DNA of 61,801 nt, counting the filler. It is 7 parts of 7 records of this genome, joined end to end, with 100 filler letters (N's around TTAATTAATTAA, not from the genome) between each part and the next. Parts side by side here need not be neighbours in the genome. Positions count along the whole stretch, not along the records: positions 1 to 13,817 come from SRR31147125_1943; 6 more parts are not named here. One strand, written 5' to 3'. Each line of letters opens with the position of its first letter. Position 1 is the first letter of the stretch. Of this stretch, positions 1-58,200 are shown piece after piece. The notes beneath the pieces were generated by a model. The model saw only the letters and a list, made by a program, of their open reading frames with translations. It searched no databases and was not told the DNA's origin. Both the position numbers and the translations under genes were made by a program.

Positions 1-113
1 CCCTGTGCCCTGTTAGGCTTATGTTTATTGGTAGCATATTTATTAGTTCGCCTCAATTCATTATAGTCATTAAATAATTCATAAACGAAACAATTTAACT
101 TCTTTAATTTCAT

Positions 114-1292
114 CTAATTGCTATTGTAACTTTCTCTTAGTTGATTGCTAATCGCATTAGCCATAGCTTCATCAATATTGAATATTTCTTTCAAATAAAC
201 CCCTTCAACAAAACTCTTATTATTATAATACATATCTGTTATTGATACTGATGGCTCTATTAATCCTTCTAAAGCATTCGCAAATTCATCGGCTGTACCA
301 GTCGCAGCTTGCCTTCCTTCCAATTGGACTTCTTTACTATATGAAGATATAAATACCATTTTACTTGAATTATCTAGCCCAATTACATCTCCTCCATCTG
401 TAGTCATAAGAGCCATTCCATGTATGATAGGGTAAACATATTCAATTTTATATTGCCTCTCATTTACCACTATTTGCGAAAAATCATAAAACACACCATT
501 ATGATTAACTTCAAGACCACCATCAAGAGAACTGCCCACAAATACTGTTATTGTTTGCCCTTTTTCTATATTAGGAAAAGGGAAATATTCTTCAGTATTT
601 ATACTACTCTCATTATTACTATTCACATTATTTTCATTCATATTATTTGAATCAGTTTTAAATGTGCTACTTTCAACATTTGCAGATGACTGTTCAGTGC
701 TATTTTGCATCTTAGAAATATTATTAAGTTTTTCTATAGAATCTACCGCCTTGTATATATACGTTATTCCTATAAATAAAACTATAATAAAAATTATTGC
801 AAAAATGCTAAATAAGATTTTAGGGAAACTTCTCTTTGCCTTATATTTATTTCTAAATCCAACTTTGGATTCTAAGAACTTCGAACAGAGCCTATTAACA
901 ACTGCATCAAAATAAGTTACATCAGCGATCAAACCATTAAACATCCTAATTGGTTCTATTTCATTTGGCATGGTTTTTGGAAATTCGAAGCCTCTCAGCA
1001 TTATAGGAATAATATTTTTATTATACTTCAATGCGTACACAATCTCTAACCTTACCCAGTCATCATCTTCATTACATCGATCTAGACCATTAGGAGGTAG
1101 AACTAAAATAAAGTCTTTACACATTTTAACTTTTTTATATAACTCAGTATTGAATGAACCCGATCTTAAAGTTTCTATGTCATAAAAAACTTTGTATCCC
1201 CTTGTGCTAAGCTCATCATATATTGCCTTAGCAGTCTGATCACCACCATTACGCCTGTAAGATATAAAAATATCATATTTACCATTTTTCAT
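114..1292 (-). CDS. TIR-domain (SARM1-like, TIR_2) membrane protein: TIR - TM helix - Ser/Asn-rich linker - unknown C-terminal domain
   Basis: YDIFISYRRNGG, VFYD, FILVLPPNGLDRC, DWVRLEIVYAL (catalytic Glu present), KNIIPIM; hydrophobic ILFSIFAIIFIIVLFIGITYIY. Start moved to ATG at 1292 (GGAG upstream). Confidence 0.9.
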   Translation of the reverse strand: MKNGKYDIFISYRRNGGDQTAKAIYDELSTRGYKVFYDIETLRSGSFNTELYKKVKMCKDFILVLPPNGLDRCNEDDDWVRLEIVYALKYNKNIIPIMLRGFEFPKTMPNEIEPIRMFNGLIADVTYFDAVVNRLCSKFLESKVGFRNKYKAKRSFPKILFSIFAIIFIIVLFIGITYIYKAVDSIEKLNNISKMQNSTEQSSANVESSTFKTDSNNMNENNVNSNNESSINTEEYFPFPNIEKGQTITVFVGSSLDGGLEVNHNGVFYDFSQIVVNERQYKIEYVYPIIHGMALMTTDGGDVIGLDNSSKMVFISSYSKEVQLEGRQAATGTADEFANALEGLIEPSVSITDMYYNNKSFVEGVYLKEIFNIDEAMANAISNQLRESYNSN

Positions 1293-1433
1293 TAGAAATT
1301 CTCCATTTCGATTTAGCTTAAAGCCCGCAGGGTAATATGTAATTTTGACCAACCAATTAGTCGCAAATTATAATTGCCCTTTCCATTAATTTCGGTACAG
1401 TACTAATCATTCAGCTTTTTAGCTGTTATAACT

Positions 1434-1707
1434 CTATTTAACCTCAAACCCCAAAGCAATTATAGCCTTAATTGTATCCATCGCAACGTTTCTATCATAC
1501 TCTTTCTCAATTTCAGGAAGTTCATGATACGGCACTAAACAAGGGTTATGTTTTTTCATCATCCCTCTCTTCACCATATGTCCAGCCTTCTGAAAAGCGC
1601 TTCTTCGCCCAAGTGTCATGAACATTCTCAGCCAGCTTTTCAACTAGGTTTTTTATGTCTTCTGAAAGCTCGATATGTGATATATCTAATGGTTGTGGGT
1701 TATACAT
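1434..1707 (-). CDS. Stand-alone RyR-domain protein (~90 aa), frameshifted at an A6 run
   Basis: Joining ORF 1546..1707 (MYNPQPLD...LAENVHDTWAKKRFSEGWTYGEERDDE) to ORF ending 1434 (KHNPCLVPYHELPEIEKEYDRNVAMDTIKAIIALGF) gives a complete RyR repeat. Break at T6 1551-1556; AGGAG before ATG 1707. Confidence 0.88.
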
Positions 1708-1756
1708 ATATACTCCTATCATTGTTTGTATTTGCATATTAATACAATAATACCAT

Positions 1757-2275
1757 TTATATACGCTTGGCGCCACAATTTGGACAGAATTTAAAACCAC
1801 CATCGATTTTAGTTCCACACTCTACGCAAAAAGTACTTTGCCCACTGTCAGAGCTTCTTTCACTTGAACTTGTAGTATGTGTGTATTTACTAATATTCTC
1901 TTCAACAACTGCCATAACCTCATCATCAAGGTTAGATTGTTGAACCAACCCCCATATTTGAGTTAGTACTACAGGCCAAGCCACAACCAAAGTAATTGCA
2001 CTCGGTAAAAGCTGTTTTCCAAAGATACCAACCTTTGCTTCAACTTTTGTTCCGTTGTTTACTTTAATGATCTCAACATTTAATGATGTTTGCATGCCAA
2101 GAACCTGTTTGAACATACCGCCCTTTTTGATGCTGACATTGTATCCACCATAAGGGGAAACTTCACTTACCACTTCATACTCCTGTGCAATAAAATGATT
2201 TTCTAAGTCGCTTACCAATCCACTATAATCGTTTAATTCTATATTAAAAAACTTAACCGTTGAAAAAGCGCTCAT
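1757..2275 (-). CDS. Membrane-associated protein with C-terminal double zinc ribbon
   Basis: Hydrophobic LLPSAITLVVAWPVVLTQIWGL; C-terminal FCVECG...FCPNCG; ATG 2275 abuts the upstream stop at 2277. Confidence 0.8.
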   Translation of the reverse strand: MSAFSTVKFFNIELNDYSGLVSDLENHFIAQEYEVVSEVSPYGGYNVSIKKGGMFKQVLGMQTSLNVEIIKVNNGTKVEAKVGIFGKQLLPSAITLVVAWPVVLTQIWGLVQQSNLDDEVMAVVEENISKYTHTTSSSERSSDSGQSTFCVECGTKIDGGFKFCPNCGAKRI

Positions 2276-2276
2276 A

Positions 2277-2549
2277 CTACAATCCCCTTTCAATATCATC
2301 CATTTGATTCTTATGATAAATTGCCTGTAACACACACAATTCAGAAATCAATTCGACAACTAAATCTTTTTCATCACTATCCAATTTTTGCTCTGCTTTT
2401 CGGAAAAGTTGCGCAACAAGCTTACCTTGCTCGTTAACTTCTTCAGCTGTTACCGTTCCGTCTTCAATGATTTTTTTGAAGCTCTTGCTTTCAAGCACAA
2501 GCTCGTCTATTCTCAAAATACCATTTTCATTAAAAAAGTTGTTTCTCAT
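2277..2549 (-). CDS. Small helical hypothetical protein (EDGTVTAEE motif, TerB-like or EF-hand-like)
   Basis: 90-aa ORF in operon context with AAAGGA upstream; family call tentative. Confidence 0.7.
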   Translation of the reverse strand: MRNNFFNENGILRIDELVLESKSFKKIIEDGTVTAEEVNEQGKLVAQLFRKAEQKLDSDEKDLVVELISELCVLQAIYHKNQMDDIERGL

Positions 2550-2651
2550 ATTTTTATTTAATCCTTTCGTTTACCTTAATCACAAAGCACAGATGAAACT
2601 GTACTAGCTCCACTGTTTTTATGCATTATTATTCAAGTTTCAAACTTTTTT

Positions 2652-3533
2652 CTATAATTTCACGCCACAACTGCGGCAAAACTTCCAATCTGCACTTATT
2701 TCACTTCTGCAATTATTGCACTTTGTACCACTATTCAATTTCTCTGTATTGATATTCTTATATTGCTCAGTATTACACCAAGCAAGTATCTCTCTGGCTC
2801 TTACAGCATTAAATGGATGACTGTTTTGTAGCCTTATATATAGCTGTAAAACTTTATCTTTAAAGTTATTAGTCCGCATATCAACATACGACTCTGCTTG
2901 TTTAATATACTCATCTATATCCACGCTTTCGGTAACAGATTTAGGACCACCCGCCAGTCTAATCATGGTTTCAACAACGCTTTTCGGTCCACCCATCACA
3001 ATAGAAGCCGCTCTGTCTGCTGAAAACTCGCTCATTCTGCTCCAAGCAAATATAGCAAGCTGTAGTGGAATAGCCACCGCTGACAGCGCCCCCAAAAATG
3101 ATGTTCCAAACTCCAAAATATATTTTGCCATCGTGTGATACAACACATGTCCGCATGCAATATGACCACATTCATGTGCAATAACAGCTTTTAACTCATC
3201 CTCTTCCATACATTCAATAAGCCCAGACGTAACTGTTATGTATACCCTTGTATCACCAAAAGTATATGCGTTTGGCATAGGATTCATCTCTAAGTAAAAC
3301 TCTGGTTCATCAATACCCAACTTTTCGCAAATCGGTGGCAAAAGGTTATAAATCTCTGGCAATTGCTTTTCCGAAAGCCTAATCTTCTGAGCCATATTCA
3401 GCCCATGAAAAAGCTGTTCATCAAAGAAATTCATAAATGCCTTTAGTGCCTGCGGAAAAAGCGGTATCGCTTTCATTGCATTTAGTGCTTCTCTGTCCTT
3501 CGGATGGACGTAATTTGGTGTTTTTCTTTGCAT
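2652..3533 (-). CDS. M48-family (HtpX/Ste24-like) zinc metallopeptidase with C-terminal zinc ribbon
   Basis: PNAYT, AVIAHECGH (HExxH), RMSEFSADR, SHP; C-terminal CNNC...CRSC. Confidence 0.9.
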   Translation of the reverse strand: MQRKTPNYVHPKDREALNAMKAIPLFPQALKAFMNFFDEQLFHGLNMAQKIRLSEKQLPEIYNLLPPICEKLGIDEPEFYLEMNPMPNAYTFGDTRVYITVTSGLIECMEEDELKAVIAHECGHIACGHVLYHTMAKYILEFGTSFLGALSAVAIPLQLAIFAWSRMSEFSADRAASIVMGGPKSVVETMIRLAGGPKSVTESVDIDEYIKQAESYVDMRTNNFKDKVLQLYIRLQNSHPFNAVRAREILAWCNTEQYKNINTEKLNSGTKCNNCRSEISADWKFCRSCGVKL

Positions 3534-3544
3534 AGAAAAGTCTC

Positions 3545-6500
3545 CTAATAAAAAATGTTCAAGCCACTATTTTGTCTTTCTTGCTCTGTCAAAACTCTTC
3601 CTTCGGTTACAGTATTAACATATTCATTCATTTCCCACATATTAGGGACCTCAAAAACGTTATCACACATTATTAATGTGCAATTTTCTGAGGATACCCA
3701 CCATCCATAATCGCCTAAATCTCGGAACACGCTATCATTTTCGTAAATAGAGAATAATTTTTCACCAGTAAAAAGGTTAAATATTTCGCCACCTGTACTA
3801 ACATCTAATCCGCTATAGGTTGATATGAACAATCTTTGCGTAGCAAAATCGACTTTGATACTTTCTATATTGGCACCTTTTAAATTAATGCTATTAATAT
3901 TTTTCACTTCTAAAGTATCAACATCGATATAAGAAACTTTTCCTTGATTATTAATAACAATTAAAGTTTTAAGATTATTAGATAGCTCAAATTTATCAAA
4001 GCAGACTGTATAAGGAATATCTTTTACCAAATTCCCAGACAATAGGTTGAATACTTTTATGCTATTTGTTGTTGATATGCTGATATGCTCATAATCATCT
4101 GTAACAGCTATATGTTGCAGTCTTCTATCTTCTTTGTTTATTAGCCTATCTATAAAATCTAATTCTTTTACTACTTTTCCAGTTTTTCTATCCCAAAGTT
4201 TATATTTAATTCCTTCATCTTTGCCATCAACTCCAATTAGCTTCTCCCCATCTTCACTGTAAAAATGATAATATCCAAATCCACTATCGTCAATTCTTAA
4301 TTCTATTTCTTCATATCCTTCAGTCTTACTATTCTTAGCTATCGTTTCTAGATACTGCATCCCTGGAATTGAGTTCATTGAGTAACTATAGTTACAGCCT
4401 TTATATTCAGGCAAGTCATACTTCTCTTCATTTCCAAAATTATTAACTATCAATTGATTGTCATCATTGCTATCAATTTCAAAAAAACTAGAAACTAAAC
4501 AAGGCTTAAGACTGTGAATTACTATTTCTCCATCCTTTGCAGCTGTCAGTATATATTTCGAAAGATTACTTACTGCTAGAGCACAAGGAGGGCGATCACT
4601 AATTTGCAAGTTATCAAACTTATATTTATTAAAGCTATTAATGGGGAAAATATCTGCACCTTGCTCATTTCCTCCACCATACAAGAAAATACACAAATCA
4701 GTGTTATCTATAGGAAGCCAGTAACAATCTGCATCATCTTGATACATCCAATCACCTGAAACAGGCTCTAATTTATATTTATCTATGTTAAAGTCACTCT
4801 CGCTTTTTATCTTTGGTAAAATATAATATACTGAATCTGACCATGCTAATATAAAAGTTTCTTCGCATTCATCAATAACCATATTACAATCCATAAAACT
4901 CAACCTAGTACTATTGAAATCAAACTCATAATATGCTAAATGATTATCATTTATATAATCATACACTCCAACACATGTTTTTTGTATATCCTCTGACCAA
5001 AAAGCTATATATAGTACTCCATCGATAGCAATATTATAGTTTAATAAGCCTTCACAAGTTATATAGTCAATACCATCCATGCTTTCATTTTTTCCTGAGT
5101 AAAATATATCTAATTGAACTTTCTTACAATCATATATAACAAATTCATTGTCATCTATTTGATATGTTGCATACCTACCATCTTTACTAGCTTTCATATT
5201 ATCATGCTGCGCATGTAATGGTTTATATCCCTTTTGATTCAGTTTATCTAGCTCGATAACAGCTGAATAATCCTTTGTAACAACATCATAAAAACCTTCT
5301 GCATTGCTTGCAAGGTCCTCATCAAAAGCTTCTCCAGTTATAAAGACATAGTTTCCCTCTTCATTATAAACTAGCTGTTTGATAAGATTTTTATATAAAT
5401 TGTAATCACTAATTAAATCTACGCCATATTTTGATTCATAGCTCATATCACCAATATCTTTTTGCTCCCAAACTAATTTTTCCAGCTCCATATTCCAAAC
5501 ATATACATCACCCAACCTCGTAGCAATTACAACTACTTTATCTGCAAAACAAATTTGTGAAGCTCCCATTGGTATTGAAAACTCTTGCAATACTTGACCA
5601 TTTTCACAACTTGCTATTATAATTTGCCCATCCACACTTCCAGCGGCAAACAAACTGTCTTCATTCGAAAAAGCTACTGCTGTTACTTCCGAACCACAAT
5701 TATATTTCCCTACTGCAGAAAACTTAGCGTAGCCAGTTGATTTTGCTAAAGCACCATCGTAAGATAGTAACAATTCATTAATACTTTCCAAATCCGTTGA
5801 AAGATAGTTGCCAACCTCACTTAATATTGCATTAGCCAGATATTTATCACCAGCATCTGCTAAATCACTTGCATAGCTTATGGTTCTAGCAAGCTGCTGT
5901 TCTTTTGTTTTTTCTATCTGATTATTTAACCTTATATTGCCCGATACAACGACAGCAAAAAAACAAATAAACACTAATATTGATGCAATGCTAGCTAAAA
6001 CAATAGTCCTTATCTTTCGCCTAACATGTCTTTTATAGAGGTCATCATATCCACATTCAAGCATTGGTGCTGCAATTCTTAAAAACTCTGTTCTAAGCTT
6101 TTTTAATGATATATTGATATTACCATCACTTGAAATATCTGCAGCTAATGGCTCTACTTCTTTGACCTGTACAGTTTCACCATCATATTTTTGCTTAATA
6201 TTCTTTACTTCTTCATATCTTAACTGTTTTGGAAAAACTTCTTTTGGATCACCATCAACCAGCAAGGTCAAAATATTATCAATACTTCCATTATGCAGCG
6301 ATTTAAAATAATCTATCTCTTCTAAGCACCATTTTGAATTATTCGTATCCTTTGAGCATATTACTATTAAATATTCTGATTCCCTTAACGCCTTTCTAAT
6401 ATCTTCCCCCAAATCGCCACTTGTTGGCAACTCGCTTTGATCTCTAAATATTCTTTTAATTCTCTTTTTAGCCAATTTATTAGAATTAGGTGGTCTATAC

Positions 6501-6598
6501 TTTTCTAATAAAATCTGTAGTTTTTCAGCAATTGCTTTATCTAGCGGTTTATGCCTATAACTAATAAACGCATCATATTTAAAATTTTTACCTTCCAT
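3545..6598 (-). CDS. TIR - TM - WD40-like beta-propeller protein
   Basis: KYDAFISYRH, IFRDQSELP, YLIVICS, SKWCLEEI (Glu present), EPLAAD; TM TIVLASIASILVFICFFAVVV; WD40-like blades (VTAVAFSNEDSLFAAGSVDGQI, IATRLGDVYVWNME, ILTAAKDGEIVIH). Start moved to ATG 6598 (GGAGG upstream). Confidence 0.88.
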   Translation of the reverse strand: MEGKNFKYDAFISYRHKPLDKAIAEKLQILLEKYRPPNSNKLAKKRIKRIFRDQSELPTSGDLGEDIRKALRESEYLIVICSKDTNNSKWCLEEIDYFKSLHNGSIDNILTLLVDGDPKEVFPKQLRYEEVKNIKQKYDGETVQVKEVEPLAADISSDGNINISLKKLRTEFLRIAAPMLECGYDDLYKRHVRRKIRTIVLASIASILVFICFFAVVVSGNIRLNNQIEKTKEQQLARTISYASDLADAGDKYLANAILSEVGNYLSTDLESINELLLSYDGALAKSTGYAKFSAVGKYNCGSEVTAVAFSNEDSLFAAGSVDGQIIIASCENGQVLQEFSIPMGASQICFADKVVVIATRLGDVYVWNMELEKLVWEQKDIGDMSYESKYGVDLISDYNLYKNLIKQLVYNEEGNYVFITGEAFDEDLASNAEGFYDVVTKDYSAVIELDKLNQKGYKPLHAQHDNMKASKDGRYATYQIDDNEFVIYDCKKVQLDIFYSGKNESMDGIDYITCEGLLNYNIAIDGVLYIAFWSEDIQKTCVGVYDYINDNHLAYYEFDFNSTRLSFMDCNMVIDECEETFILAWSDSVYYILPKIKSESDFNIDKYKLEPVSGDWMYQDDADCYWLPIDNTDLCIFLYGGGNEQGADIFPINSFNKYKFDNLQISDRPPCALAVSNLSKYILTAAKDGEIVIHSLKPCLVSSFFEIDSNDDNQLIVNNFGNEEKYDLPEYKGCNYSYSMNSIPGMQYLETIAKNSKTEGYEEIELRIDDSGFGYYHFYSEDGEKLIGVDGKDEGIKYKLWDRKTGKVVKELDFIDRLINKEDRRLQHIAVTDDYEHISISTTNSIKVFNLLSGNLVKDIPYTVCFDKFELSNNLKTLIVINNQGKVSYIDVDTLEVKNINSINLKGANIESIKVDFATQRLFISTYSGLDVSTGGEIFNLFTGEKLFSIYENDSVFRDLGDYGWWVSSENCTLIMCDNVFEVPNMWEMNEYVNTVTEGRVLTEQERQNSGLNIFY

Positions 6599-6699
6599 TT
6601 TCCTCCAAAAAAAACAGTAACCAAAAAAGCCCATAATTGACTTATAAATCGCCTTTGATTACTATTCTATAATTCCAAAACCATGATGTCTTTCCAATA

Positions 6700-6715
6700 A
6701 TGTAAATTATAACAT
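6700..6715 (-). promoter_or_regulatory. Extended -10 promoter element (TGnTATAAT) within a 16-bp motif repeated at 13147-13162
   Basis: Plus strand ATGTAAATTATAACAT = minus ATGTTATAATTTACAT, ~100 nt upstream of the TIR-WD40 start. Confidence 0.5.
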
Positions 6716-7048
6716 ATTATTGGTTTAATTTGTATAATTAATTGTTGATAATTGTCAAATTTCCAACATGTTATTCTATTAGCTTTTATACTAGTAAAGT
6801 ACTTTCTCCATGTACAAAATAAACAACACTATTACAATCTCCAAACCGTAATAATATTGTTTAATCCACCCAAATCAAGCCACAGCCTCATCCCTTAAAG
6901 CCGCCTAACATTCTATCTAACAAGTGCAACTTTCATAAACGAGAACGCCTTGCCAGGTACGACACTTATTTCGTTTATGGTATGCAATATCTAGCATATC
7001 TTGCACAAAACAACGTAAGTATGTTCTTATTTCAGCGTGGACAACCAC

Positions 7049-7093
7049 CTACAAACCAAAGGGTCGGGGGTTCGTACCCCTCCGGATACGCCA
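7049..7093 (+). pseudogene. Degenerate 3' half of a tRNA (probably Arg-ACG); candidate attR scar
   Basis: CTACAAACCAAAGGGTCGGGGGTTCGTACCCCTCCGGATACGCCA: anticodon-loop-like CTAC(A)AA, GGTC variable loop, T-arm GGGGG-TTCGTAC-CCCTC, acceptor 3' strand, discriminator G, CCA. The matching 5' strand (GTATCCG) and D-arm are absent upstream. Confidence 0.75.
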
Positions 7094-7121
7094 AATAACC
7101 ACAATATATTGTGGTTATTTT
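7093..7121 (+). terminator. Intrinsic terminator-like hairpin directly after the tRNA remnant
   Basis: Perfect 28-bp palindrome AAATAACCACAATA-TATTGTGGTTATTT (7093-7120) followed by T-rich sequence. Confidence 0.65.
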
Positions 7122-7429
7122 ATTATACAAGTCTGTATATAGAATTTAATTCCCCGCAGACTAAAACATCATTGTTCGAATCCCCTATTTCTTATATTGT
7201 ACTTTTCAAAAAAAGCAATGAAACAACACTATTTGCACTAAATCCACTTCTTTATATGTTTTCTAATTAACATCACTCTGTCAAAATTGTAGTAATTTGT
7301 ATTCATAAAGCGTCTTTTAAGAAATATTAAGTTAATTAACTTAATGCAAATTTTATTTTGTCATTGACATGCAGTTTTGCTACGAGTGTGGAACCTGAAT
7401 TTTACTTTAATTTGCTATTTTGTGAGAAA

Positions 7430-9577
7430 CTATTTATCTCTAAATAATCCAAAGTATCTTTTCTTTATTTGTTCACTTATTTCAAAGCCATTATCATAAA
7501 CTAATGTTGCATCTAAATGCCCTTGTATTTTTGCAATTCGTATCCACTTTTTAAACTTTTCTATATCTTTCTTTGTACCTATAGAATATGCATACATCAC
7601 TGCTAAATAAAATTGCGCATCGCAAAATCCGCTCTCTGAGAGTTTGAGTGCAATATCGAAAGCATTTTTGCTGTTTTGCTCATCTTCATTTAAATCTGAT
7701 TTGTTAAGGATGTTTATTAGTTTTTCGAATACATTATCATAATTTTTTTCATGCAGAATCCAGTTAGAATCAGCAGGATGGTGTTCTGAAGAAATACCAT
7801 CGGTATATTCTTTGTCTTCTCTCTTTGTGTCTTTCTCTATTAGTGCACTTATTTTTTTAATATCTTCAGTGTCAGCATAATCTACTTTTGGGCAATCTAA
7901 AATAGCTTTTATGTTGCGGGGTATTCTTGCTTCTTCAATAAATACACTTATAATATCCTTACCCTGATTAAGTGCATATAAAATTTCATTTCGCACATTT
8001 TTTGATTGAATTGAATTTTTGGAAACAAACAACATAAAGCATCTGCTGTGCTCCAATGATTCAGCTATATTGTCCCGCCACTCATCTCCTGGGTCTATTC
8101 CCTGATCATACCATATTCTATATCCGCTTTTATGCAGTTGATCTATTATTGGATAAACAACTTCGCTGTCTAAATGCGCATAACTGATAAATATATAGGG
8201 TAAATTCCCAACATAAGCAACAAAGGGTGTATATTCAATATTCATTTTCTCTTCTTCCCATATTCTTAATAGTTTATTGGCTAATCTATGCCCTCTGTCT
8301 GCTGCTTTTTTTACCCATTCCATTGCTTTTAATTGGTCTTTTTTTACACCTATCCCTAGATTGTACTCAGCCCCCAAATTATACATAGCATCTATATGTC
8401 CATTCTCTGCAGCTGCCTTGCACCATTTATGACCTTCTTTTTCATCTTTAATTACACCATCACCATAATGATATTTAATGCATAGCTCCATCTGAGCATC
8501 TGAATCACCTGCGTTTGCTTTTAGTATTAGCTCTTTAACTTTATCTGTCTTTTCTACATCTAAATATCTTGCGAAGTTTCTACTACCATACAACCTCTCA
8601 TTTGCTTTAGTACTTCCTAGCTGTGATGCTTTATAATATAACTCTGCCGCCATTTTATAATCTTTCTTTGCTACATCGCTGAATTCATTTACATGATAAC
8701 ATTCAGCTAATTTATATATTGCATGCTCATAACCTTGATCTGCAGCTTTTTGAAATAAATCAAATGCCTTTTTAAGATTATCTACTCTTTCATGTCTGTT
8801 TTTGTGTTCTAAATCTACATAATACTGTCCCCATTCAGTTTGAGATTCAGGGTATCCTGACATTGCAGCCCTTTCAATCCACTTATATCCTTCATCTCTA
8901 TCCTTTGGCATTGCTATTCCTGCAAACAATGTCATGCCCAGCATATGCTGAGCCTCCAGATGTCCGCGGTTTGCCAGCTGCAAATACATACTATACGCTT
9001 TTTTACTTGCTTCTTTAGAGTCTTTATACAAATGTGGGTTATATGCTTTTACAAGGTTGTCATATGCTTCTTTTAAAAATGTAAATGTTGGCAATAATGC
9101 ACTATCTGCATTCCCAGCATCAATTTTTTTCTGCTGTCTATCCACACACTCCTTAGGGATCTCATTTTTTATCATATATATATAATCTTGTGTGCTATTA
9201 TTCTGCTTGTGAATCTTTTTGGTATAAGCCATGCCCAAAAGCAATGAGCGAGGTAAATCGTATTCATTAAGGTAGAGTGTCAAAATTGGTTTTTCTATAT
9301 CCAGACAATAGTTAACCTGTCTTCTAACCTGCTTTGATTTTCCTGAATTTTTCGAAACTAAAAAAATAAATATTGTACATTTTTCTATTGCACTTGACGA
9401 ATCCTTATCCATTACAGCAGTATTTTCGATATCTTCATCATACCAGATGCGATATCCTAAGTTATACAAAGAAATTAATTCATCATATATTTCTTCAAAA
9501 TCTTCTTTAGCATAGGAAACATATATGTATGGTTCACTTGCTAGATAAGAATAAAACGGTATTGATTTATTTTTCAT
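7430..9577 (-). CDS. TIR(E->Q) - SEL1 repeats - TIR - SEL1 protein
   Basis: TIR1 PYIYVSYAKED...GYRIWYDE...KQVRRQVNY; SEL1 repeats (AQHMLG...AAMSGYPESQ, AQMELC, AMYNLG...AADRGH); TIR2 PYIFISYAHLD...GYRIWYDQGIDPGDEW...NVRNEILYAL; final SEL1 AQFYLAVMY. ATG 9577 follows the upstream stop at 9579. Confidence 0.88.
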   Translation of the reverse strand: MKNKSIPFYSYLASEPYIYVSYAKEDFEEIYDELISLYNLGYRIWYDEDIENTAVMDKDSSSAIEKCTIFIFLVSKNSGKSKQVRRQVNYCLDIEKPILTLYLNEYDLPRSLLLGMAYTKKIHKQNNSTQDYIYMIKNEIPKECVDRQQKKIDAGNADSALLPTFTFLKEAYDNLVKAYNPHLYKDSKEASKKAYSMYLQLANRGHLEAQHMLGMTLFAGIAMPKDRDEGYKWIERAAMSGYPESQTEWGQYYVDLEHKNRHERVDNLKKAFDLFQKAADQGYEHAIYKLAECYHVNEFSDVAKKDYKMAAELYYKASQLGSTKANERLYGSRNFARYLDVEKTDKVKELILKANAGDSDAQMELCIKYHYGDGVIKDEKEGHKWCKAAAENGHIDAMYNLGAEYNLGIGVKKDQLKAMEWVKKAADRGHRLANKLLRIWEEEKMNIEYTPFVAYVGNLPYIFISYAHLDSEVVYPIIDQLHKSGYRIWYDQGIDPGDEWRDNIAESLEHSRCFMLFVSKNSIQSKNVRNEILYALNQGKDIISVFIEEARIPRNIKAILDCPKVDYADTEDIKKISALIEKDTKREDKEYTDGISSEHHPADSNWILHEKNYDNVFEKLINILNKSDLNEDEQNSKNAFDIALKLSESGFCDAQFYLAVMYAYSIGTKKDIEKFKKWIRIAKIQGHLDATLVYDNGFEISEQIKKRYFGLFRDK

Positions 9578-9578
9578 T

Positions 9579-10667
9579 TTATATCTCACTCTGCACTTGT
9601 TTTAATAGTTTTCGTGCCTCTACATGTCCTTTTTGAGCAGCTTTAGACAGCCAAATTATTGATTTATCTAAATCCTTTTCAACATGTTCACCTTTACTAT
9701 AATAATACCCTAAGCTGTACTCGCAGTGAAATAAGCCTAAATCTACTCCTCTATACAGCCAATCCAAACCTAATTGTTCATTTCTCCTTACGCCTAACCC
9801 TTCAAAATAGCATGATGATAGATTAAAAATAGCATACTCATTATTAGCATCAGCAGCTTTCATAAACCAATAAATTCCTTGACTTTCATCCTTTTGCACT
9901 CCTCTTCCACACATATAACATGCACCTAATGATACCTGCGCACCAGCATATCCACATTCCGCTGATTCTTTATACCACTTGTAGCATTCTTCATAATTAA
10001 TATCCACATATACTCCATTTTGATAGAACCCCGCCAGACGATACTGTGCTGTTGGATGTCCAAGTTCTGCTGATTTTTTACAATACTCAAATGCTAGTTT
10101 GTCACTGTTCTGATTACTATACTGTACAAAAAGATCAAAGTATTTATTCATTTCCATAAATGCAGGTCCTTCCATTATACTGCCAAAATATAATTTACTA
10201 ACCCTTACCTCCTCTTCAGTCATTACATCCTGCAGCGCCGGCGAAATTATAAGTCTAAGCTGATCAATTAGAGATTGCAAACCCAGTTTCTCTAACTTCA
10301 TTGCCTGATAATCAGCGATTGATAAATGTAGTGACTTTGGCAAAGTCAGCTCTTTTTCGTCTAAATGAATTGCTAAAAATGGTTTATCCAAAGCCAAAGC
10401 TAAATCAATTTGATGCCTAACCACAGCATCCTCAACACTTCTTTGAGATAATAAACATATAAAATAGCCGCATTTTTTTATTGCTTTATTTGCATATACA
10501 TGTACTTGCGGATCCTCTCCATAACTTTCATCAAAACTTATTCTGTATCTAAACTGCTGCAGATAATATAGTACACTTACAACTTTTTCAAAATCATATT
10601 GAGCATAACACAAATATATAAACGATTTTTCTTCTTCGTATGGTCCTTTTAATTTTACTTCTTCCAC
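9579..10667 (-). CDS. Degenerate TIR(E->Q) - SEL1 repeat protein
   Basis: FIYLCYAQYD...YRISFDE...FICLLS...VVRHQIDLALALDKP; several SEL1 repeats (AQYRLAGFYQNG, AQVSLGACYMCGRGV, AIFNLSSCYFEGLGV). GTG start. Confidence 0.82.
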   Translation of the reverse strand: MEEVKLKGPYEEEKSFIYLCYAQYDFEKVVSVLYYLQQFRYRISFDESYGEDPQVHVYANKAIKKCGYFICLLSQRSVEDAVVRHQIDLALALDKPFLAIHLDEKELTLPKSLHLSIADYQAMKLEKLGLQSLIDQLRLIISPALQDVMTEEEVRVSKLYFGSIMEGPAFMEMNKYFDLFVQYSNQNSDKLAFEYCKKSAELGHPTAQYRLAGFYQNGVYVDINYEECYKWYKESAECGYAGAQVSLGACYMCGRGVQKDESQGIYWFMKAADANNEYAIFNLSSCYFEGLGVRRNEQLGLDWLYRGVDLGLFHCEYSLGYYYSKGEHVEKDLDKSIIWLSKAAQKGHVEARKLLKQVQSEI

Positions 10668-11250
10668 TTCTAATCTACCTTCTTTCTAAATCTTCTATTA
10701 AAGTAATATTCTAATTCTAGTTTAACTAATAACTGCAATTTTTCATCATAAAGCAGCCTTCTATTTCAGTCTTTGTAACTCCAGCTATATACGCTTCCAA
10801 ATTAGTATTTTTCTAGACAATACCCACTAAACATACTTCCCCTCACTAACTGCTTTCCTAACTAAAGCTCCTATCCCTGTATCGCTTTGGGCACTTTGCC
10901 ATATCATACTGATTTAGATAACATGTACTCATTTGCCAGTCTATAATTTTATTTTTTCACATTTCTCTTATATAAAGCTTCTGATTCTTCATGTACTATA
11001 TCTTTTGGCCAGCTCTTACAAATGCTACACGGTAAAAGTGACTTTGGGTAGACTTAATATTCTCATAGTACGAGCACCTCAGGAACAAGAGGGTAATATC
11101 TTAATGAGTTGCAAGGTCTGATTGCGGATCATTTTAAATGTTCTTCTAATTGTGTTGTTCTTTGTTACTTATCATATCAATTTCATAATTCTCAATATAG
11201 ATACTATCGTGTCTTTTTCCCACAGTATGCGCTAAACATAAATTGTATAT

Positions 11251-12985
11251 CTACTGCAGTCTAACCACCTTCATATTAGCCACCTTAGCAAGCTTAATCA
11301 CATTACGGGCTGTATTTCTGTCCTTTTCTCTTTCGCGCTCAGGCAATTCTTCCCATGGGAGTATGCAGGGGTGTTCTTTATTTTCATTATTTCGTTCAGT
11401 AGCATATTTCCATCCAAAACGAACCCTACCTTCCATCCAGTCATCATGTTCAAGTATTGCATACTGTTCAATTGTACTCTTAGGTAATTCTGTCACAGCT
11501 TTTCCATCAAGTTCTTCAGCTTCCAAAGCATATCCAAGCAATCTCAGCTTTTTATCCATATTCATTGCCTGTCGTAAATTAGAGTATCTTACAGATGACT
11601 CAAGCTTATAATAATCTTCATTTACATGTATTTCATCATCATTCTTTTTTTGCTTAATAATATAATCATCATGTATTTCTTTGGCCAGCAATTCCATGTT
11701 TTCCAAAAGCGGACGCGGTATTTTTTTATTTACTCCAGCTTCAATATATGCAATATCCAAAGTATCGCAATCTATGTTCAACCCTTTCGGGAATACTTCT
11801 TTGATATTAAGCAGCTCATTAAAAAGTTTGATTTTATTATCAATAAACTCTTGCTTAAAATTTCTCTTGCCTGCTAAATATGTTATATTAAAAATTTCTT
11901 TACCGATTATAATATTTGCGCTTTTTGCGTGTGTTCTGTACTTTTCTTTTATTCCATATCCTTCTCTGTTCCACTCTTGCATTTCATCGCACATTATTAG
12001 AAGATATGCTATTGGATATTCTTTTGCTTCTAGCGGTCTGCGAGTGAACTGCTTAAGTATTACGTTTCTATAGTAGTTATGCATTAGTATAGCGCCTGCA
12101 CTATCAACAATGGCATTATAAAAACGCATAGGATTACCTTTCGTAATTTGAATTAGGTAACCATACCACTTAAGCACAATAATCGCACTATAAAACCCGT
12201 GATCAATAAAGCCGTATTTTGCCATATCAGCTGTAAAATTATCAAGCTTATTCTTTATTTCTTCAATTGGTATTCCTATTGATTGATGTATTTTTTGAGC
12301 CAGCAAATCAATTGGCTGTAGCAAGTCAATATATACACTGCTTTCGTTTCTTTCATACTGCTCTTTAATAAATTCTTTTTTAGGCATTACTTCTGCAATT
12401 GAATTTAGACGACGGAAGTTTTCAAATTCTAAATGAGCTTTGATTGAACCTTTACTTTCATCATGGTCAGCATCTGTTGCAAACCGTATAAAGTTTAGCA
12501 TTTGCTTTCCTATTATCTCTACAGGGTAACCAACATCATGGGAAAGCGATGCCAGCCCCCATCGAAAAAAGAATTCTTCATGTTTTGTTTTATAATTCTC
12601 AGGATATTTTTTTATCTATAACAACATCATTAAATATCTGCCTATAATTTTTATTTTGAGCGTAAATGCAAATTCCTAGAATAAAGACATTTACAGAATG
12701 AATATAATGGTCTCTTTGCTTATCAATCAGGGTGGCCGCTTTTTCTTCATATTCACTAAGAACATCCAGTAAATCCATAAAAGGATTATTGGAGCCTTCC
12801 AGCATTATTCGATATGTACCAAAGAAAAGCTTATATACATCAAAAGCAGTATCCTTTGTTTCATCCGATAAAAAAGCAATTAAGGATTGCTCAAGTAACT
12901 CTTTTTTCGATTTGCCTTTATCACTTGTTAGCTTAAGTTCGTTAAAAAACTTTTTGATGTAATTTTGCAGATTACTGATTTGCAT
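11251..12985 (-). CDS. HD-type metal-dependent phosphohydrolase fused to C-terminal RyR repeats, frameshifted at an A7 run
   Basis: N-terminal part RDHYIHSVNVFILG; shifted frame continues YPENYKTKHEEFFFRWGLASLSHDVGYPVE into ORF 11251..12501 (DHGFYSA, AILMHN, LLIMCDEMQEWNR). C-terminal RyR: EHDDWMEGRVRFGWKYATERNNENKEHPCILPWEELPEREREKDR. Break at T7 12607-12613; AGGAGG before ATG 12985. Confidence 0.82.
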
Positions 12986-13146
12986 GTTTCCTCCTATTTT
13001 TATAGAGATTTTCAAATAACTTTTATGACTATTTGCAACGATTACAATTATGTCATTAATAACCAATAATGGATCATCACCTATATAAGGTAGGTTTAGC
13101 TTAAAATCCTCCAACTTATTAACCAACGCAGGAAATGTGTAACAAT

Positions 13147-13162
13147 ATGTAAATTATAACAT
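13147..13162 (-). promoter_or_regulatory. Extended -10 promoter element identical to 6700-6715
   Basis: ATGTAAATTATAACAT, ~160 nt upstream of the HD-RyR start. Confidence 0.5.
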
Positions 13163-13249
13163 TATTTTAAGTATTGTTCAATAATTATAAATAGTACATA
13201 CCAGTATTAATTTTAAAATGGCAACGCATTATTCTTGATGCCTCCTTTG

Positions 13250-13817
13250 TTACCCCATCGGAATATCAATACTACTCATCCTATTAAATACGACCCAGTC
13301 TGCATTTTCAGCCAACGCATCGTATCCAATTTCCACAATAATTTTATCAAGCTTATCATAATCATTTTCAGCATATGCTTTTTCAAACTCGACCTTTGCT
13401 TGAGTAAATATCATAATCATTCTTCTGTATTGATTTAGTTCAACATCAAACTTTCTTTGTTCAAAATAATTATAAAACACTGCACCAACTGATAAGAAAA
13501 AATCAACAGCAAATAAGAATGCAAATTCTTCAATTCCAATAGCTTCCCATTTAGCTTGAATCATCAAAAGCATTGCAGCTAGAACACCAGCTCCAAACAT
13601 TGCATATTTAACAACCGTATTCCACTTTATTCTTTTTTTGTTCTTTTGGCATTTAGTTTTAAAATAATTTATCTGTCCATTAATCCAGCATAATTTCAAT
13701 TCTTGATAGTTTCTATTTTTTTGATTAGAGCATAATTCGTAGTTAATATCCATAGATATGTTTCTGATCGCTGCAAGTACCCACCCCAGTTCCCATTCAT
13801 TCTTTCTAGAATAATTA
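13250..13817 (-). CDS. SLATT-like two-TM effector domain protein, C-terminal fragment (runs off the contig)
   Basis: Frame stays open to the contig edge (NYSRKNEWELGWVLAAIRNISMD...); WINGQINYFKTK helix, two TM helices, QYRRM, EIGYDALAENADW. Confidence 0.65.
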
Positions 13818-13917
13818 NNNNNNNNNNNNNNNNNNNNNNNNNNNNNNNNNNNNNNNNNNNNTTAATTAATTAANNNNNNNNNNNNNNNNNNNNNNNNNNN
13901 NNNNNNNNNNNNNNNNN
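13818..13917. other. Artificial contig linker
   Basis: 44 N + TTAATTAATTAA + 44 N. Confidence 0.99.
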
Positions 13918-55244: not shown

Positions 55245-58200
55245 TTTAGCACAACCTGGTATTTTAAAGATTCCTATTACGGACTTACCAGCGACCCTAA
55301 CTTGTATGAACAATTAGAAATTGATGAAACATATCCGATTTTACAAGGTTTAGATATATCAAATGGTGAATTATTAATTGAAGATGCCATTGATTTCATT
55401 TATATGAATGATTTGTTGAAATTATCAGGTATATTTAGACAATCAACCTATATGTTAAATGCTGATATTGACATGACACAAGTATCAAAAGATAGTTTTG
55501 TTGCTGCAGAAGCAAGTTTTAATGGGACACTTGGTAGTTATGAAATTAATGGCAATACCCTGTTTAATCATGGTTCAATGGGTGGAGCAAGTAACTATTA
55601 TAGTGTTTTAAACTTAACGATTTCACAACCAACTTTTATTGGTGATTATGCATCATATAGTTTATTTGCTGCATTGTTTGGCACAGTTGAACATATCAAC
55701 TTTATTAATTATCAAATTATACCTGAAGATTTATCACTTGTTGAAGATGTTGATCGCTTATTGATTGCAGGTATATCTGCAAATACTAGTAATGCAAACA
55801 TTCATGATGTTCATCTAGATATTAATATCGATGTCAATGTGACCAATGAATCGCTAGGTAAATTATATGTCTCAGGTCTATATGCCTATGGACAAGCATC
55901 GATTTCACATACAACAACCATTGGTGAAATTGATGAAATTCATATCAATGATGATCCTAGAATGACAGAAAATTACATCGCAGGTATGGTCGCATATGGT
56001 CAACAAGTTGATATTGAATATAGTATCAATGAAATTGATATATTAGGTTTATCATATGTTGGACAACCAACAAATACCATGTATATGGGTGGTATGTTTG
56101 GTTATGCATCATTTAAAGATATATATAAAATTATCAACAAAGGTGATATAGTGTCACATACTCAAGGTTATCTTGATACGGCTTATATAGGGGGTATAGT
56201 GGGTTATCAAAATGATTTAGAAAATGAGGTCAATTTTGTTTATCATGAAGGGGATGTGGTTGTAGATGCATATGATCATCAAACGGTTTATGCTGCGGGT
56301 TATGGTTATGTGACAGATGAAGAAAACTTGATTACACTCACAAGTATTACAAGTAATGGAACAATTTCTTTACTCAGTACATCTACTTTAAGTGATACAG
56401 TGCTACAACAAATGACATATTATGTGTCAGGTGTTCTTATCACTGAACAAACAAATGGGCATATTACTGGCCTCTTTCATAAACATGATCAAACCATCGA
56501 CATCAGTTATGTTGATTATTTTGCACTTAATTTATTGGCTTTAGATCAAGATGATTTAAATGTTGAGCAGAGTTATCAAACAGGTGATATTGATTTTATT
56601 ACTTCACAAGACTTAAACAATGAAAATATACAGATTTCATTGAATCTATATGGTAAAAACATGAATCTAAATCATATACGTCAAGAAGGGGATGCATCAT
56701 TTAATTTCACAAATGACTCATCACAATCTCTTACAAATGCAAACCTCTATATTTACGGTTTATTTGAAGAAGTTAGTGATACTTTTTATGCCTCAAATGG
56801 TTATCAAGGTGGAAATATAACAGTTAGCAAATCTACATCATCAGACATTGCATATAATTTATTTGTATCAGGTATTGCATATGCTAATAGGAATACATCA
56901 ATATATAGCGAGTTAAATATTAACTATCAATCTATTGATATTGATGTCGTTGATGGATCGGTTGACACAATGCTTAACCATGGTGATATTTTAATTGAAA
57001 ATAATTTTAATGGTGATGTGAAAGCATCAGGTATATTACTATACAATGAGGGTATTGTTACAGATGTCATTAATTCAGGTCATGTTGAAATATATAATGA
57101 TATTCAAACAGCTAATGACCAAATAGAAGCATCTGGTATTGTCTATGCTATGTTAGGTGCATATGCTCAAATTAGAAATGCAGCAAACAATGGTGATATT
57201 AAAGTTGCATCAACATCAACGATAAGTGGTTTTGCTCATGCAGCAGGTATCGTTGTAAGAAATGATATTTTAGAAGACGGATCAAATATTAATAATACGA
57301 CAGCACTTAATCAATATGCAAAAATATGGTTTAGTATAAATTATGGTGATATTTATGCATATAGTGGTCTCAATGAATCATCATATAGTATTACTAATGA
57401 AACAACCAGTAAAGCATCTGGTATTTTTGGACAAGGTATTTTATCAATAGTCAATACTATTAATTATGGAAATGTCTATAGCAGATATTTAAGTGCAGGA
57501 TTATTTGGTTTTGTGTATTACAATAAATTTCCAACATTAAATGCAGATATCGTATATATCTCAAACTCAATTAATTATGGAAAAATTAGACAAGTTACTG
57601 CGTATAATGATTCAACACAAACCTATACGTATAATATGAGTTCAACACCATCAACAGGACTTCCATATGCATTTGGGGCCATTGTAGGTAAGATCCATAC
57701 AGCCACTTCATCATGGGATTTTGCAGGAAATGTCGATTATCCAATAGATAGTATATATTTTGGATATTTATTAAACTTTGATGAAAAGATTAATATGTTT
57801 GCAAGTGCGCCAGATTTAACATCTGATTGGGCAGATGCTTGGTCTGGTAATACAAGTGATGCTAATGAGTTTATTCTTGATATGATTCAATATATGGCAA
57901 CGACGAATCCTTCAGATGCATCAGTTGAGCCTTTTACTTACTTTTATACAGGTGGTTTTTGGGGTGGACAATACATTGGTGATTATATTCAATATCTAGA
58001 ATTAAATGAAACCGATGATGGTATGTTTTACAATGGATTTGCATTTCGATCACCGCCACCTGCAATCAGTGGAACAGATCAATATATTGCAGATTATATT
58101 GAATATATACCAAGTGAAAAAGTAAATACTCAATTATTGACACAAATAGAATCAGACACCACATACGATTACCCTGGTATTTATGTACTATCAAGTGATA

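Follow-up and report, generated by a model that had tools for sequence, protein, structure and literature searches.

RyR-domain genes adjoin TIR genes in a candidate Thoeris-like signalling island

Thoeris systems pair ThsB with a conserved partner, ThsA, whose sensor is of the SLOG type, and signal-activated protease pathways include CalpL-CalpT-CalpS of type III CRISPR and the caspase-like effector of type IV Thoeris. As far as its main text goes, a survey on bioRxiv (10.64898/2025.12.03.692087) recognises Thoeris types I to XI and 29 putative types, and in type VII a TIR protein is combined with the SLATT effector ThsH, the signal being canonical cyclic ADP-ribose (cADPR). The terms 'RyR', 'HD domain', 'phosphodiesterase' and 'M48' do not occur in that main text, Figure 1 and Table S1 (29 putative types) lying outside the search. 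According to the available text of a May 2026 preprint (PMC13232231), the phage glycosidase RyDEP, which has an RyR fold, opens 2'cADPR and 3'cADPR and contacts its ligand through H75, W78, H100 and D117, and six of eight tested phage RyR homologues bind 2'cADPR/3'cADPR, those other than RyDEP without cleaving. A June 2026 report (10.64898/2026.06.04.730250), in the part accessible, describes the phage sponge RyR Tad, which binds 3'cADPR, 2'cADPR and cADPR. Both reports treat phage proteins, and no host RyR system appears in the available text of either; the terms 'host-encoded' and 'bacterial genomes' are absent from the text of the second. No paper on a host RyR-TIR system was found in the literature on the RyR domain or PF02026 with TIR, SLATT, SMODS, Thoeris, conflict systems or phage. 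Here, we describe a contig, SRR31147125_1943, on which genes for RyR domains, an M48 protease and a SLATT-type membrane protein stand among TIR genes. It occupies positions 1-13817 of a 61,801-nucleotide window, which is the whole stretch of DNA that was analysed.

We read the contig as an island of Thoeris-like TIR signalling, where RyR and SLOG domains would receive the signal and gate an HD/phosphodiesterase (PDE)-like domain, a membrane effector and a protease cassette, a tentative reading that falls just short of being probable. What the sequences show is domain content, linkage and fusions; from these we infer which signal is made, which way information flows and what all the enzymes do. 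Module A would consist of a SLOG-SLATT membrane protein, an HD(PDE-like)-RyR enzyme (HD-RyR) and three TIR proteins bearing either SEL1 repeats or a transmembrane (TM) beta-propeller. Module B would combine an M48-zinc ribbon protein with a protein of about 90 residues, with two membrane proteins, of which one has a zinc ribbon and the other a TIR domain, and with a small RyR protein. Triggered through SEL1, leucine-rich repeat (LRR), WD40 or external domains, the TIR proteins would turn nicotinamide adenine dinucleotide (NAD+) into molecules of the cADPR type, for which RyR (Repeat12-like) and SLOG domains would be the receivers. Ligand binding would then turn on the outputs that are fused to these domains or encoded nearby, namely the PDE-like HD domain, the membrane effector SLATT and the cassette with the M48 protease. 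The RyR domain may in addition cleave the signal slowly, in which case the response would be self-limiting.

A preliminary description, made from the letters of the contig, had listed ten co-directional genes with five TIR domains, two RyR-domain genes, an M48 protease and no housekeeping gene, and on these points it was borne out. All long open reading frames (ORFs) of positions 1-13817 lie on the minus strand and make up ten genes. Pfam TIR_2 matches place five TIR domains in four ORFs, and Pfam RyR scores 58.5 bits in a 416-residue ORF of HD-RyR and 72.9 bits (profile positions 1-51) and 44.8 bits (46-89) in the small RyR gene (cut-off 27.4). Peptidase_M48 scores 83.1 bits (cut-off 20.3), and no housekeeping gene was found in the Pfam scan of the contig. 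The combination had also been judged not to be a named system; PADLOC recognised the TIR domains alone, as ThsB-like, and named no system. A functional association of the RyR, HD-RyR, M48 and SLATT genes with TIR genes had been proposed as well, and the linkage of their homologues to TIR genes, which recurs in the loci tested here, favours it.

The functional link of HD-RyR with TIR is backed, at the level of sequence, by both linkage and fusion. One genome per species was scanned, and from 213 relatives of HD-RyR 80 loci with 1136 ORFs were kept, in which TIR and DUF4062 were detected by local hidden Markov models (HMMs). In these and all other related loci the ORFs were crudely called, the TIR model was built partly from the window's own TIR domains, many loci are short and the metagenome loci are partly redundant. 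By record title, the HD-RyR loci come from Clostridia, Chloroflexota, Bacteroidales, Coriobacteriia and other Actinomycetota, Terriglobales and one Methanobrevibacter metagenome-assembled genome (MAG). TIR or DUF4062 adjoins HD-RyR in 35 of the 80 loci (31 on the same strand), lies no more than three genes away in 53 and is present anywhere in the locus DNA in 55, and its frequency is 21-26% at gene ranks -3 to +1 and 0-6% beyond. A frequent minimal unit is HD-RyR with a TIR gene of the same strand directly after it; by our reading 15 loci have it, with no other common gene visible. Across five genomes (about 16.8 Mb), 9 of 13 TIR_2 matches fall inside 21.7-kb HD-RyR loci, and all five TIR_2 matches of one 2.9-Mb genome adjoin HD-RyR.

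The two domains also occur within single proteins. L030:475-2727 is one ORF of 750 residues with HD-RyR followed by a C-terminal TIR_2 domain, and 6 of the 150 best HD-RyR representatives (P0174, P0175, P0181, P0193, P0203 and P0212) carry one to three N-terminal TIR domains ahead of HD-RyR, as detected by the local HMM alone. Glu occupies the WxxxE column in 26 of 31 TIR domains adjacent or fused to HD-RyR, a residue that we take to be catalytic as in SARM1 and plant TIR proteins. In a Pfam scan of 100 neighbours of HD-RyR, TIR_2 or DUF4062 was fused to LRR, TPR, SEL1, WD40, RCC1, NACHT/NB-ARC or RHS. Other neighbours are large LRR-only proteins, kinase-LRR proteins, TrkA_N-RyR proteins (nine loci), 96-residue RyR proteins (L002 and L003), SLOG proteins (L004 and L006) and SLOG-SLATT proteins.

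Two genes of the contig, HD-RyR (11251..12985, minus strand) and the small RyR gene, are each broken in two by a poly-A run, which in the former lies near position 12606 (ORFs 12599-13126 and 11251-12501). The only public DNA run listed with the contig's DNA, for which no RNA run was listed (run X1; contigs assembled independently, depth about 3-7x), which may be the same source sample as the window contig, has two extra bases at 1550 and at 12606 that restore both frames, and the repaired HD-RyR junction fits the family spacing D-x-x-K-Y-P. Single-base differences in run X1 at 8244 and 12901 would break ORFs that are intact in the window, and homopolymer length is therefore unreliable in these data; the HD-RyR and small RyR genes are probably both intact. 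A joint from 9508 to 11423 in one contig of run X1, with 21 letters on its shorter side, was rejected as a probable artefact of TIR-SEL1 paralogues.

The 416-residue part of HD-RyR has 426 relatives at E<=0.001. Full-length relatives are mostly 577-578 residues long, reach 83% identity and bear only the names 'RyR domain-containing' or 'hypothetical'. A profile search of 1.84 billion representatives at E<=1e-30 places the family in 346 clusters at 50% identity; no part of it has a name in PADLOC, and HD-RyR has no NCBIfam match. In an alignment of 25 sequences, H94, H97, H151 and D152 are nearly invariant and D263, H264, H304, D335 and E336 invariant, and the window copy keeps the HD-type residues. 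An AlphaFold2 model was made from the 74%-identical relative P0002 (pLDDT 81.7). Its residues 3-432 align to PDE1B with a VIA-align Z of 10.6 (root mean square deviation 5.3 A, 250 residues), and PDE or other HD-type domains fill the top 23 rows (Z 8.8-10.6), bearing in mind that a Z under about 13 in helical proteins may mirror a mere common arrangement. The HD part also resembles PPX/GppA, HD-GYP and YhaM, and SidE-family PDE domains at Z 7.1-7.7.

Residues 420-578 of the P0002 model are Repeat12-like (Foldseek E 1.5e-5, VIA-align Z 8.7), and a profile search of the PDB gave E 2.8e-36 to the Bt-hRyR chimera. H515, W518 and D557 of HD-RyR, the equivalents of the ligand residues H, W and D, are invariant in the 25 sequences; they were mapped by spacing against a PDB alignment, RyDEP and RyR Tad not being among the matches listed, and this spacing agrees with the residue numbers published for the phage proteins. 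A relative of HD-RyR with two RyR stretches (752 residues) is encoded at L073:2333-4591 on the contig of the Methanobrevibacter (archaeal) MAG.

RyR is found as the C-terminal domain of the HD/PDE-like enzyme, of TrkA_N proteins (9 loci), of an ion channel and of a protein with a C39-like region, and its fusion to such different outputs suggests that it behaves like a sensor domain. The channel, L135:6962-8575 (minus strand), has 537 residues with an Ion_trans_2 domain of potassium-channel type and a C-terminal RyR, a prokaryotic channel with a ryanodine-receptor repeat. The small standalone RyR gene of the contig (1434..1706, minus strand) encodes about 90 residues, in ORFs 1546-1818 and 1434-1643 with the poly-A run near 1550, and by eye its third ligand position holds Asn, with His one residue earlier. 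PF02026 is present in 36 of 399 sampled Clostridia genomes. Among 17 small standalone RyR loci of these genomes a TIR gene is adjacent in 6, within two genes in 7 and within about 7 kb in 8. An unknown protein of 590-730 residues, then RyR, then TIR(-LRR) forms a recurring cassette, and further neighbours are PrsW, a CPBP-type protease, an FtsH-like protein, ClpP and Card1-like nuclease domains. At L103, L105, L106, L107, L109 and L110 the small RyR gene has no directly adjoining TIR gene (at L110 a TIR gene lies two genes off) and adjoins genes for FtsH-like, PrsW, CPBP/Rce1-like, ClpP or Card1-like proteins. The pairing of RyR with proteases may be a wider theme.

Next to the small RyR gene on the contig lies the protease cassette, all of it on the minus strand. 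The M48 metalloprotease with a C-terminal zinc ribbon (M48-ZnR, 2652..3533) keeps the HExxH residues H120, E121 and H124 and four zinc-ribbon Cys invariant across 27 sequences, and it scores far too low for the HtpX equivalogs of NCBIfam (at best 65.8 bits against a cut-off of 341). A helical protein of 90 residues and no known family (sm90, 2277..2549) has no Pfam, PADLOC, NCBIfam or PHROG match, and 24 dereplicated homologues of it lie directly after M48-ZnR genes. The third member is a 172-residue zinc-ribbon protein (1757..2275, Zn_Ribbon_1 31 bits; its ORF, ZnR192, has 192 residues) with one hydrophobic segment and a C-terminal zinc ribbon, which in Protein Atlas matches zinc-ribbon clusters only. 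A complex prediction for M48-ZnR and sm90, run without alignments, gave a score of 0.00.

A metagenome scan for M48-ZnR returned 74 loci with relatives 44-59% identical including the zinc ribbon, which form 17 clusters (M48 at 80% identity), the M48 gene being called in 70 of the 74. A TIR gene is co-located in 46 loci (9 clusters), RyR in 45 (11 clusters), an sm90 homologue in 35 (12 clusters) and a ZnR192 homologue in 35 (10 clusters). On these counts M48-ZnR, sm90 and ZnR192 form a conserved set of three that keeps company with RyR and TIR genes. In 6 of 15 cluster representatives the gene immediately upstream of M48 is RyR, ZnR192 homologues come after the M48 and 87-residue genes in 10 of the 17 clusters, and the order RyR, M48, 87-residue gene, zinc-ribbon gene recurs across clusters.

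Pfam domains of 49 neighbours at the M48 loci include Macro-TIR, SIR2-TIR, kinase-transglutaminase-TIR, TIR-TPR, nSTAND1, PrsW and RyR proteins of 308-333 residues. The Macro-TIR and SIR2-TIR fusions of these M48/RyR islands (L146:13508-14599, L154:10183-11550 and L193:15127-16524) add NAD+/ADP-ribose (ADPR)-handling domains. Each 308-333-residue RyR protein comes after a gene of 183-189 residues that resembles extracytoplasmic function (ECF) sigma factors (NCBIfam E 1.3e-8, below the cut-off; in Pfam, a weak Sigma70_r4_2 match only), the pairs lying at L146:11992-13483, L193:11085-12597, L206:6418-7963 and L210:9850-11329. At the N-terminus these RyR proteins are anti-sigma-like by eye, in the middle they are weakly C39-like (E 7e-4), and RyR stands at their C-terminus; the sigma/anti-sigma-like pairs suggest a transcriptional output from an RyR sensor. 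At L146 the stop of the ECF-sigma-like gene overlaps the start of the RyR gene.

Both ends of the contig appear to lie in genes of a SLOG-SLATT family, since the SLATT-type neighbours of HD-RyR elsewhere are, by alignment, SLOG-TM-SLATT fusions of about 500-570 residues. These adjoin HD-RyR in L001, L005, L025, L048, L056 and L062, and their SLOG matches are weak (YpsA, YAcAr and DprA-type). At the contig start, the first 12 codons of a SLOG-type gene (2..37, minus strand) were matched by blastx to the N-terminus of the 568-residue SLOG-SLATT protein of L001 (10 of 12 residues identical, weak E of 0.007), and the motif is common to SLOG-SLATT proteins adjoining HD-RyR. At the other end, the C-terminal 189 residues of a SLOG-SLATT-type membrane protein (13250..13816, minus strand, frame open to base 13816) are 44% and 34% identical to the SLOG-TM-SLATT proteins next to HD-RyR in L005 and L001, respectively. 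One segment of this part exceeds the hydropathy threshold and a second hydrophobic stretch is visible by eye. The two ends could be those of a single gene across a circle or a repeat, in which case about 1.1 kb is missing, or of two paralogues at which the assembly broke. The preliminary description had named a SLATT-like protein with two TM segments here. Relatives support this, the L001 protein matching NCBIfam SLATT_3 (E 2.4e-5) and relatives matching DUF4231 (E 1.2e-6, 7e-4 and 0.0048), but the part itself scores 19.5 bits to SLATT_1, under the cut-off of 26.3, its ORF is open at the contig end, and BLASTP against a bona fide SLATT_1 protein was not significant.

The four TIR ORFs, again all on the minus strand, fall into two kinds. 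The 412-residue protein (114..1352; TIR_2 50.4 bits, residues 28-140) has one TM segment (hydrophobic residues 174-192), a C-terminal domain of no known family and Glu at the WxxxE column, and its PADLOC matches are to ThsB-like TIR only. The 1029-residue protein (3545..6634; TIR_2 42.9 bits) has one TM segment (hydrophobic residues 207-225) and a beta-propeller-like region whose WD40-type matches are all below cut-off save ANAPC4_WD40 (24.1 against 22.9); its relatives flank HD-RyR in L016 and adjoin a small RyR gene in L114. The other two carry SEL1 repeats: a TIR-SEL1-TIR-SEL1 protein of 719 residues (7430..9589; TIR_2 119.7 bits in two stretches, Sel1 122.6 bits), with Gln at the WxxxE column of its first TIR and Glu in its second, and a TIR-SEL1 protein of 362 residues (9579..10667; TIR_2 33.1 bits, Sel1 118.8 bits), with Gln.

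That RyR receives the signal is favoured because RyR is fused to many unrelated outputs, because HD-RyR is the conserved partner of variable TIR genes, and because HD-RyR with TIR-LRR is a frequent minimal unit. Several observations weigh against this interpretation. TIR or DUF4062 was not found in the DNA of 25 of the 80 HD-RyR loci. Gln occupies the presumed catalytic position in two of the five window TIR domains (Glu in three), and the TIR of the 362-residue protein and the first TIR of the 719-residue protein may be non-catalytic partners. An M48 search of the 399 Clostridia genomes gave matches in 14, and six loci analysed with flanks of ±8 kb (23-47% identity, matches ending before the zinc ribbon) have neither TIR or RyR neighbours nor an sm90 or ZnR192 neighbour; the absence of linkage that these six loci pointed to was overturned by the metagenome loci with zinc-ribbon-bearing relatives. 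No HD or PDEase Pfam model matches two full-length HD-RyR relatives at E<=10, and the best fold match of the HD part, Z 10.6, is beneath the level deemed safe for helical proteins. The HD phosphohydrolase of the preliminary description accordingly retains its conserved H/HD/D motifs and predicted fold and lacks a Pfam family, and HD membership rests on fold and motifs because no Pfam HD model matches and the Z is unsafe. RyR biochemistry, finally, is known for phage proteins, and the roles of host RyR domains are predictions.

The remaining objections lead to a different assignment of roles, a possible account that we consider doubtful, in which HD-RyR and the small RyR protein would process the signal instead of receiving it: RyR would capture or open cyclic ADP-ribose and the HD/PDE domain would cut the pyrophosphate. 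In this way the signal could be erased or buffered, it could be matured into the true messenger, or NAD+ loss could be made irreversible against phages that rebuild NAD+ from ADPR, and the effectors would be SLOG-SLATT, M48 or the TIR proteins themselves. Pyrophosphate cleavage in ADP-ribosylated ubiquitin is the activity of the SidE PDE domain, one of the phosphodiesterase domains that the HD part resembles, and a fold of this predicted kind would equally suit a signal-degrading enzyme. TIR fused to HD-RyR would fit consecutive enzymes of a pathway as well as a generator with its receiver, and an effector is already present where TIR, SLOG-SLATT and HD-RyR occur in one locus, so that HD-RyR could be a regulatory third part. 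In the available text of PMC13232231, RyDEP opens 2'cADPR and 3'cADPR, and the positions of its H/D dyad are invariant in HD-RyR; by the same text, most tested phage RyR homologues bind without cleavage, which speaks against processing. An eraser would also leave the two-gene HD-RyR and TIR unit of 15 loci without an effector of its own unless the TIR protein kills by NAD+ depletion, and RyR on a channel, on TrkA_N and on an anti-sigma-like protein is the typical pattern of a sensor domain. The preliminary description had assigned RyR to binding, buffering or erasing an ADPR-derived signal; phage biochemistry gives this a precedent in the text available (PMC13232231; 10.64898/2026.06.04.730250), but a receiver-effector role fits equally or better. 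A self-limiting effector would combine the two.

It is unlikely that the genes are independent defence genes, each TIR protein being both a sensor and an NAD+-depleting effector, with RyR, M48 and SLATT as unrelated neighbours in a variable region. Clustering of defence genes is well known, partner architectures are highly varied, 25 of 80 HD-RyR loci have no TIR in their DNA, and the 583-bp and 795-bp gaps of the contig allow at least three transcription units. Against this stand the TIR-HD-RyR gene fusions, the sharp TIR peak at ranks -3 to +1 around HD-RyR, the 2.9-Mb genome in which all five TIR_2 matches adjoin HD-RyR, and the recurring order of RyR, M48, 87-residue and zinc-ribbon genes.

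Slightly less credible still is signalling outside immunity, in response to the envelope, to neighbours or to host cues, or by TIR-SEL1 proteins acting on a eukaryotic host. Two window TIR proteins do have a layout of TIR, one TM segment and external domain, relatives of the M48 locus carry ECF-sigma-like genes and PrsW proteases, and many M48 loci come from records titled gut metagenomes; yet STAND NTPases, Macro-TIR, SIR2-TIR and SLOG-SLATT partners are typical of conflict systems, and the Pfam scan of the contig showed no secretion signal or secretion system.

HD-RyR is host-borne and chromosomal, and not carried by phages or plasmids: its relatives sit inside chromosomes of 2.5-4.2 Mb, a search of 50,697 phage records gave three weak partial matches and one of 72,556 plasmids gave none, M48-ZnR is absent from the phage records, and the contig as a whole has no megablast match in plasmids or phages. 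It is therefore very improbable that the contig is a phage or mobile element whose RyR proteins act as sponges against Thoeris in the manner of RyDEP and RyR Tad, even though its GC differs from that of most other window contigs, RyR PHROG families exist and the sole characterised RyR proteins of the bacterial world are, in the text available (PMC13232231; 10.64898/2026.06.04.730250), from phages, since it bears no phage or plasmid hallmark gene in addition to the near absence of HD-RyR from phage records.

The surrounding sequence adds little. The contig has a GC of 0.33 and is bounded by an N spacer at 13818-13917; the whole window consists of seven contigs joined via N spacers containing TTAATTAATTAA, and the six others have a GC of 0.32-0.42. 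No tRNA or Rfam family was found on positions 1-13817, and promoter-like sites are about as frequent as chance predicts (71, with 68.4 expected). Intergenic gaps at 6635-7429 (795 bp) and 10668-11250 (583 bp) interrupt the co-directional row and may contain promoters or small genes that went unrecognised; neither these two gaps nor one of 123 bp gave a blastx match to any protein of the related loci. Among the other contigs, one with SusC/SusD-type genes and another with peptidase S46 have a Bacteroidota-like look, and further contigs carry DctM, a solute-binding protein and transketolase. A 2152-residue ORF at 55302-61760 (plus strand) fills nearly an entire low-GC contig (0.319), its sole Pfam match being a weak CBM_5_12 near the C-terminus (E 1.3e-5, just under the cut-off). 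The bin of seven contigs may be mixed.

Binding or cleavage of TIR-made cyclic ADP-ribose by RyR was first shown in mid-2026, for phage counter-defence proteins only, and the pairing of host RyR with TIR is apparently undescribed so far. In about 190 related loci, bacteria and at least one archaeal MAG place RyR genes next to, or fused to, their own TIR genes, in recurrent cassettes built on HD-RyR, on a small RyR with the M48-zinc-ribbon protease, and on TrkA_N-RyR, channel-RyR and sigma/anti-sigma-like-RyR proteins. If RyR is the receiver, as favoured here, it would be a new sensor class with several new effector classes for TIR immunity, the origin of the phage sponges would be explained, and a testable prokaryotic model would exist for the long-debated action of cADPR on ryanodine receptors. 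A broader proposal, which is conceivable and in its entirety doubtful, is that RyR (Repeat12) is the native bacterial receptor for TIR-made cyclic ADP-ribose and gates phosphodiesterases, ion channels, proteases and anti-sigma factors, some TIR generators being transmembrane receptors with external sensors. The sponges RyDEP and RyR Tad would then have been captured from host systems, and the cADPR-ryanodine receptor link of animals would descend from a prokaryotic TIR-to-RyR pathway.

Among described systems, Thoeris is close to the locus in organisation. As there, one or more TIR genes, themselves variable, go with a single conserved non-TIR gene, the TIR domains keep the presumed catalytic Glu, a SLOG-type sensor is probably present, and the neighbourhood is built around NAD+/ADPR domains; unlike Thoeris, the contig has no SIR2-SLOG ThsA, Macro effector or PADLOC system match, and the place of the conserved partner is taken by an HD/PDE-like enzyme that bears an RyR domain. 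The preliminary description had seen no ThsA, and PADLOC agrees; a SLOG-type sensor nevertheless belongs to the SLATT gene family here, the contig holding such a gene only as its 12 N-terminal codons and the 189-residue C-terminal part. Like type VII Thoeris, the locus pairs TIR with a putative SLATT-type membrane protein, but here SLATT belongs to a SLOG-TM-SLATT fusion family, HD-RyR lies between SLATT and TIR, and the gene is incomplete. The modelled HD part is similar to class I cyclic-nucleotide phosphodiesterases, HD-GYP, PPX/GppA HD and SidE PDE domains in its predicted all-helical HD-type fold and H...HD...D residues, at a sequence identity of just 8-14%. With CalpL-CalpT-CalpS and type IV Thoeris it would share the coupling of a second messenger to proteolysis, and relatives of the locus have ECF-sigma/anti-sigma-like pairs; the protease here is instead M48 with a zinc ribbon, the presumed sensor is RyR, and the window has no sigma factor. 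RyDEP and RyR Tad belong to the same Pfam family, PF02026, and their H-x-x-W, H and D ligand positions are kept in HD-RyR. Those proteins serve phage counter-defence, whereas the host RyR domains are chromosomal, fused or adjacent to enzymes and proteases, and adjoin TIR genes.

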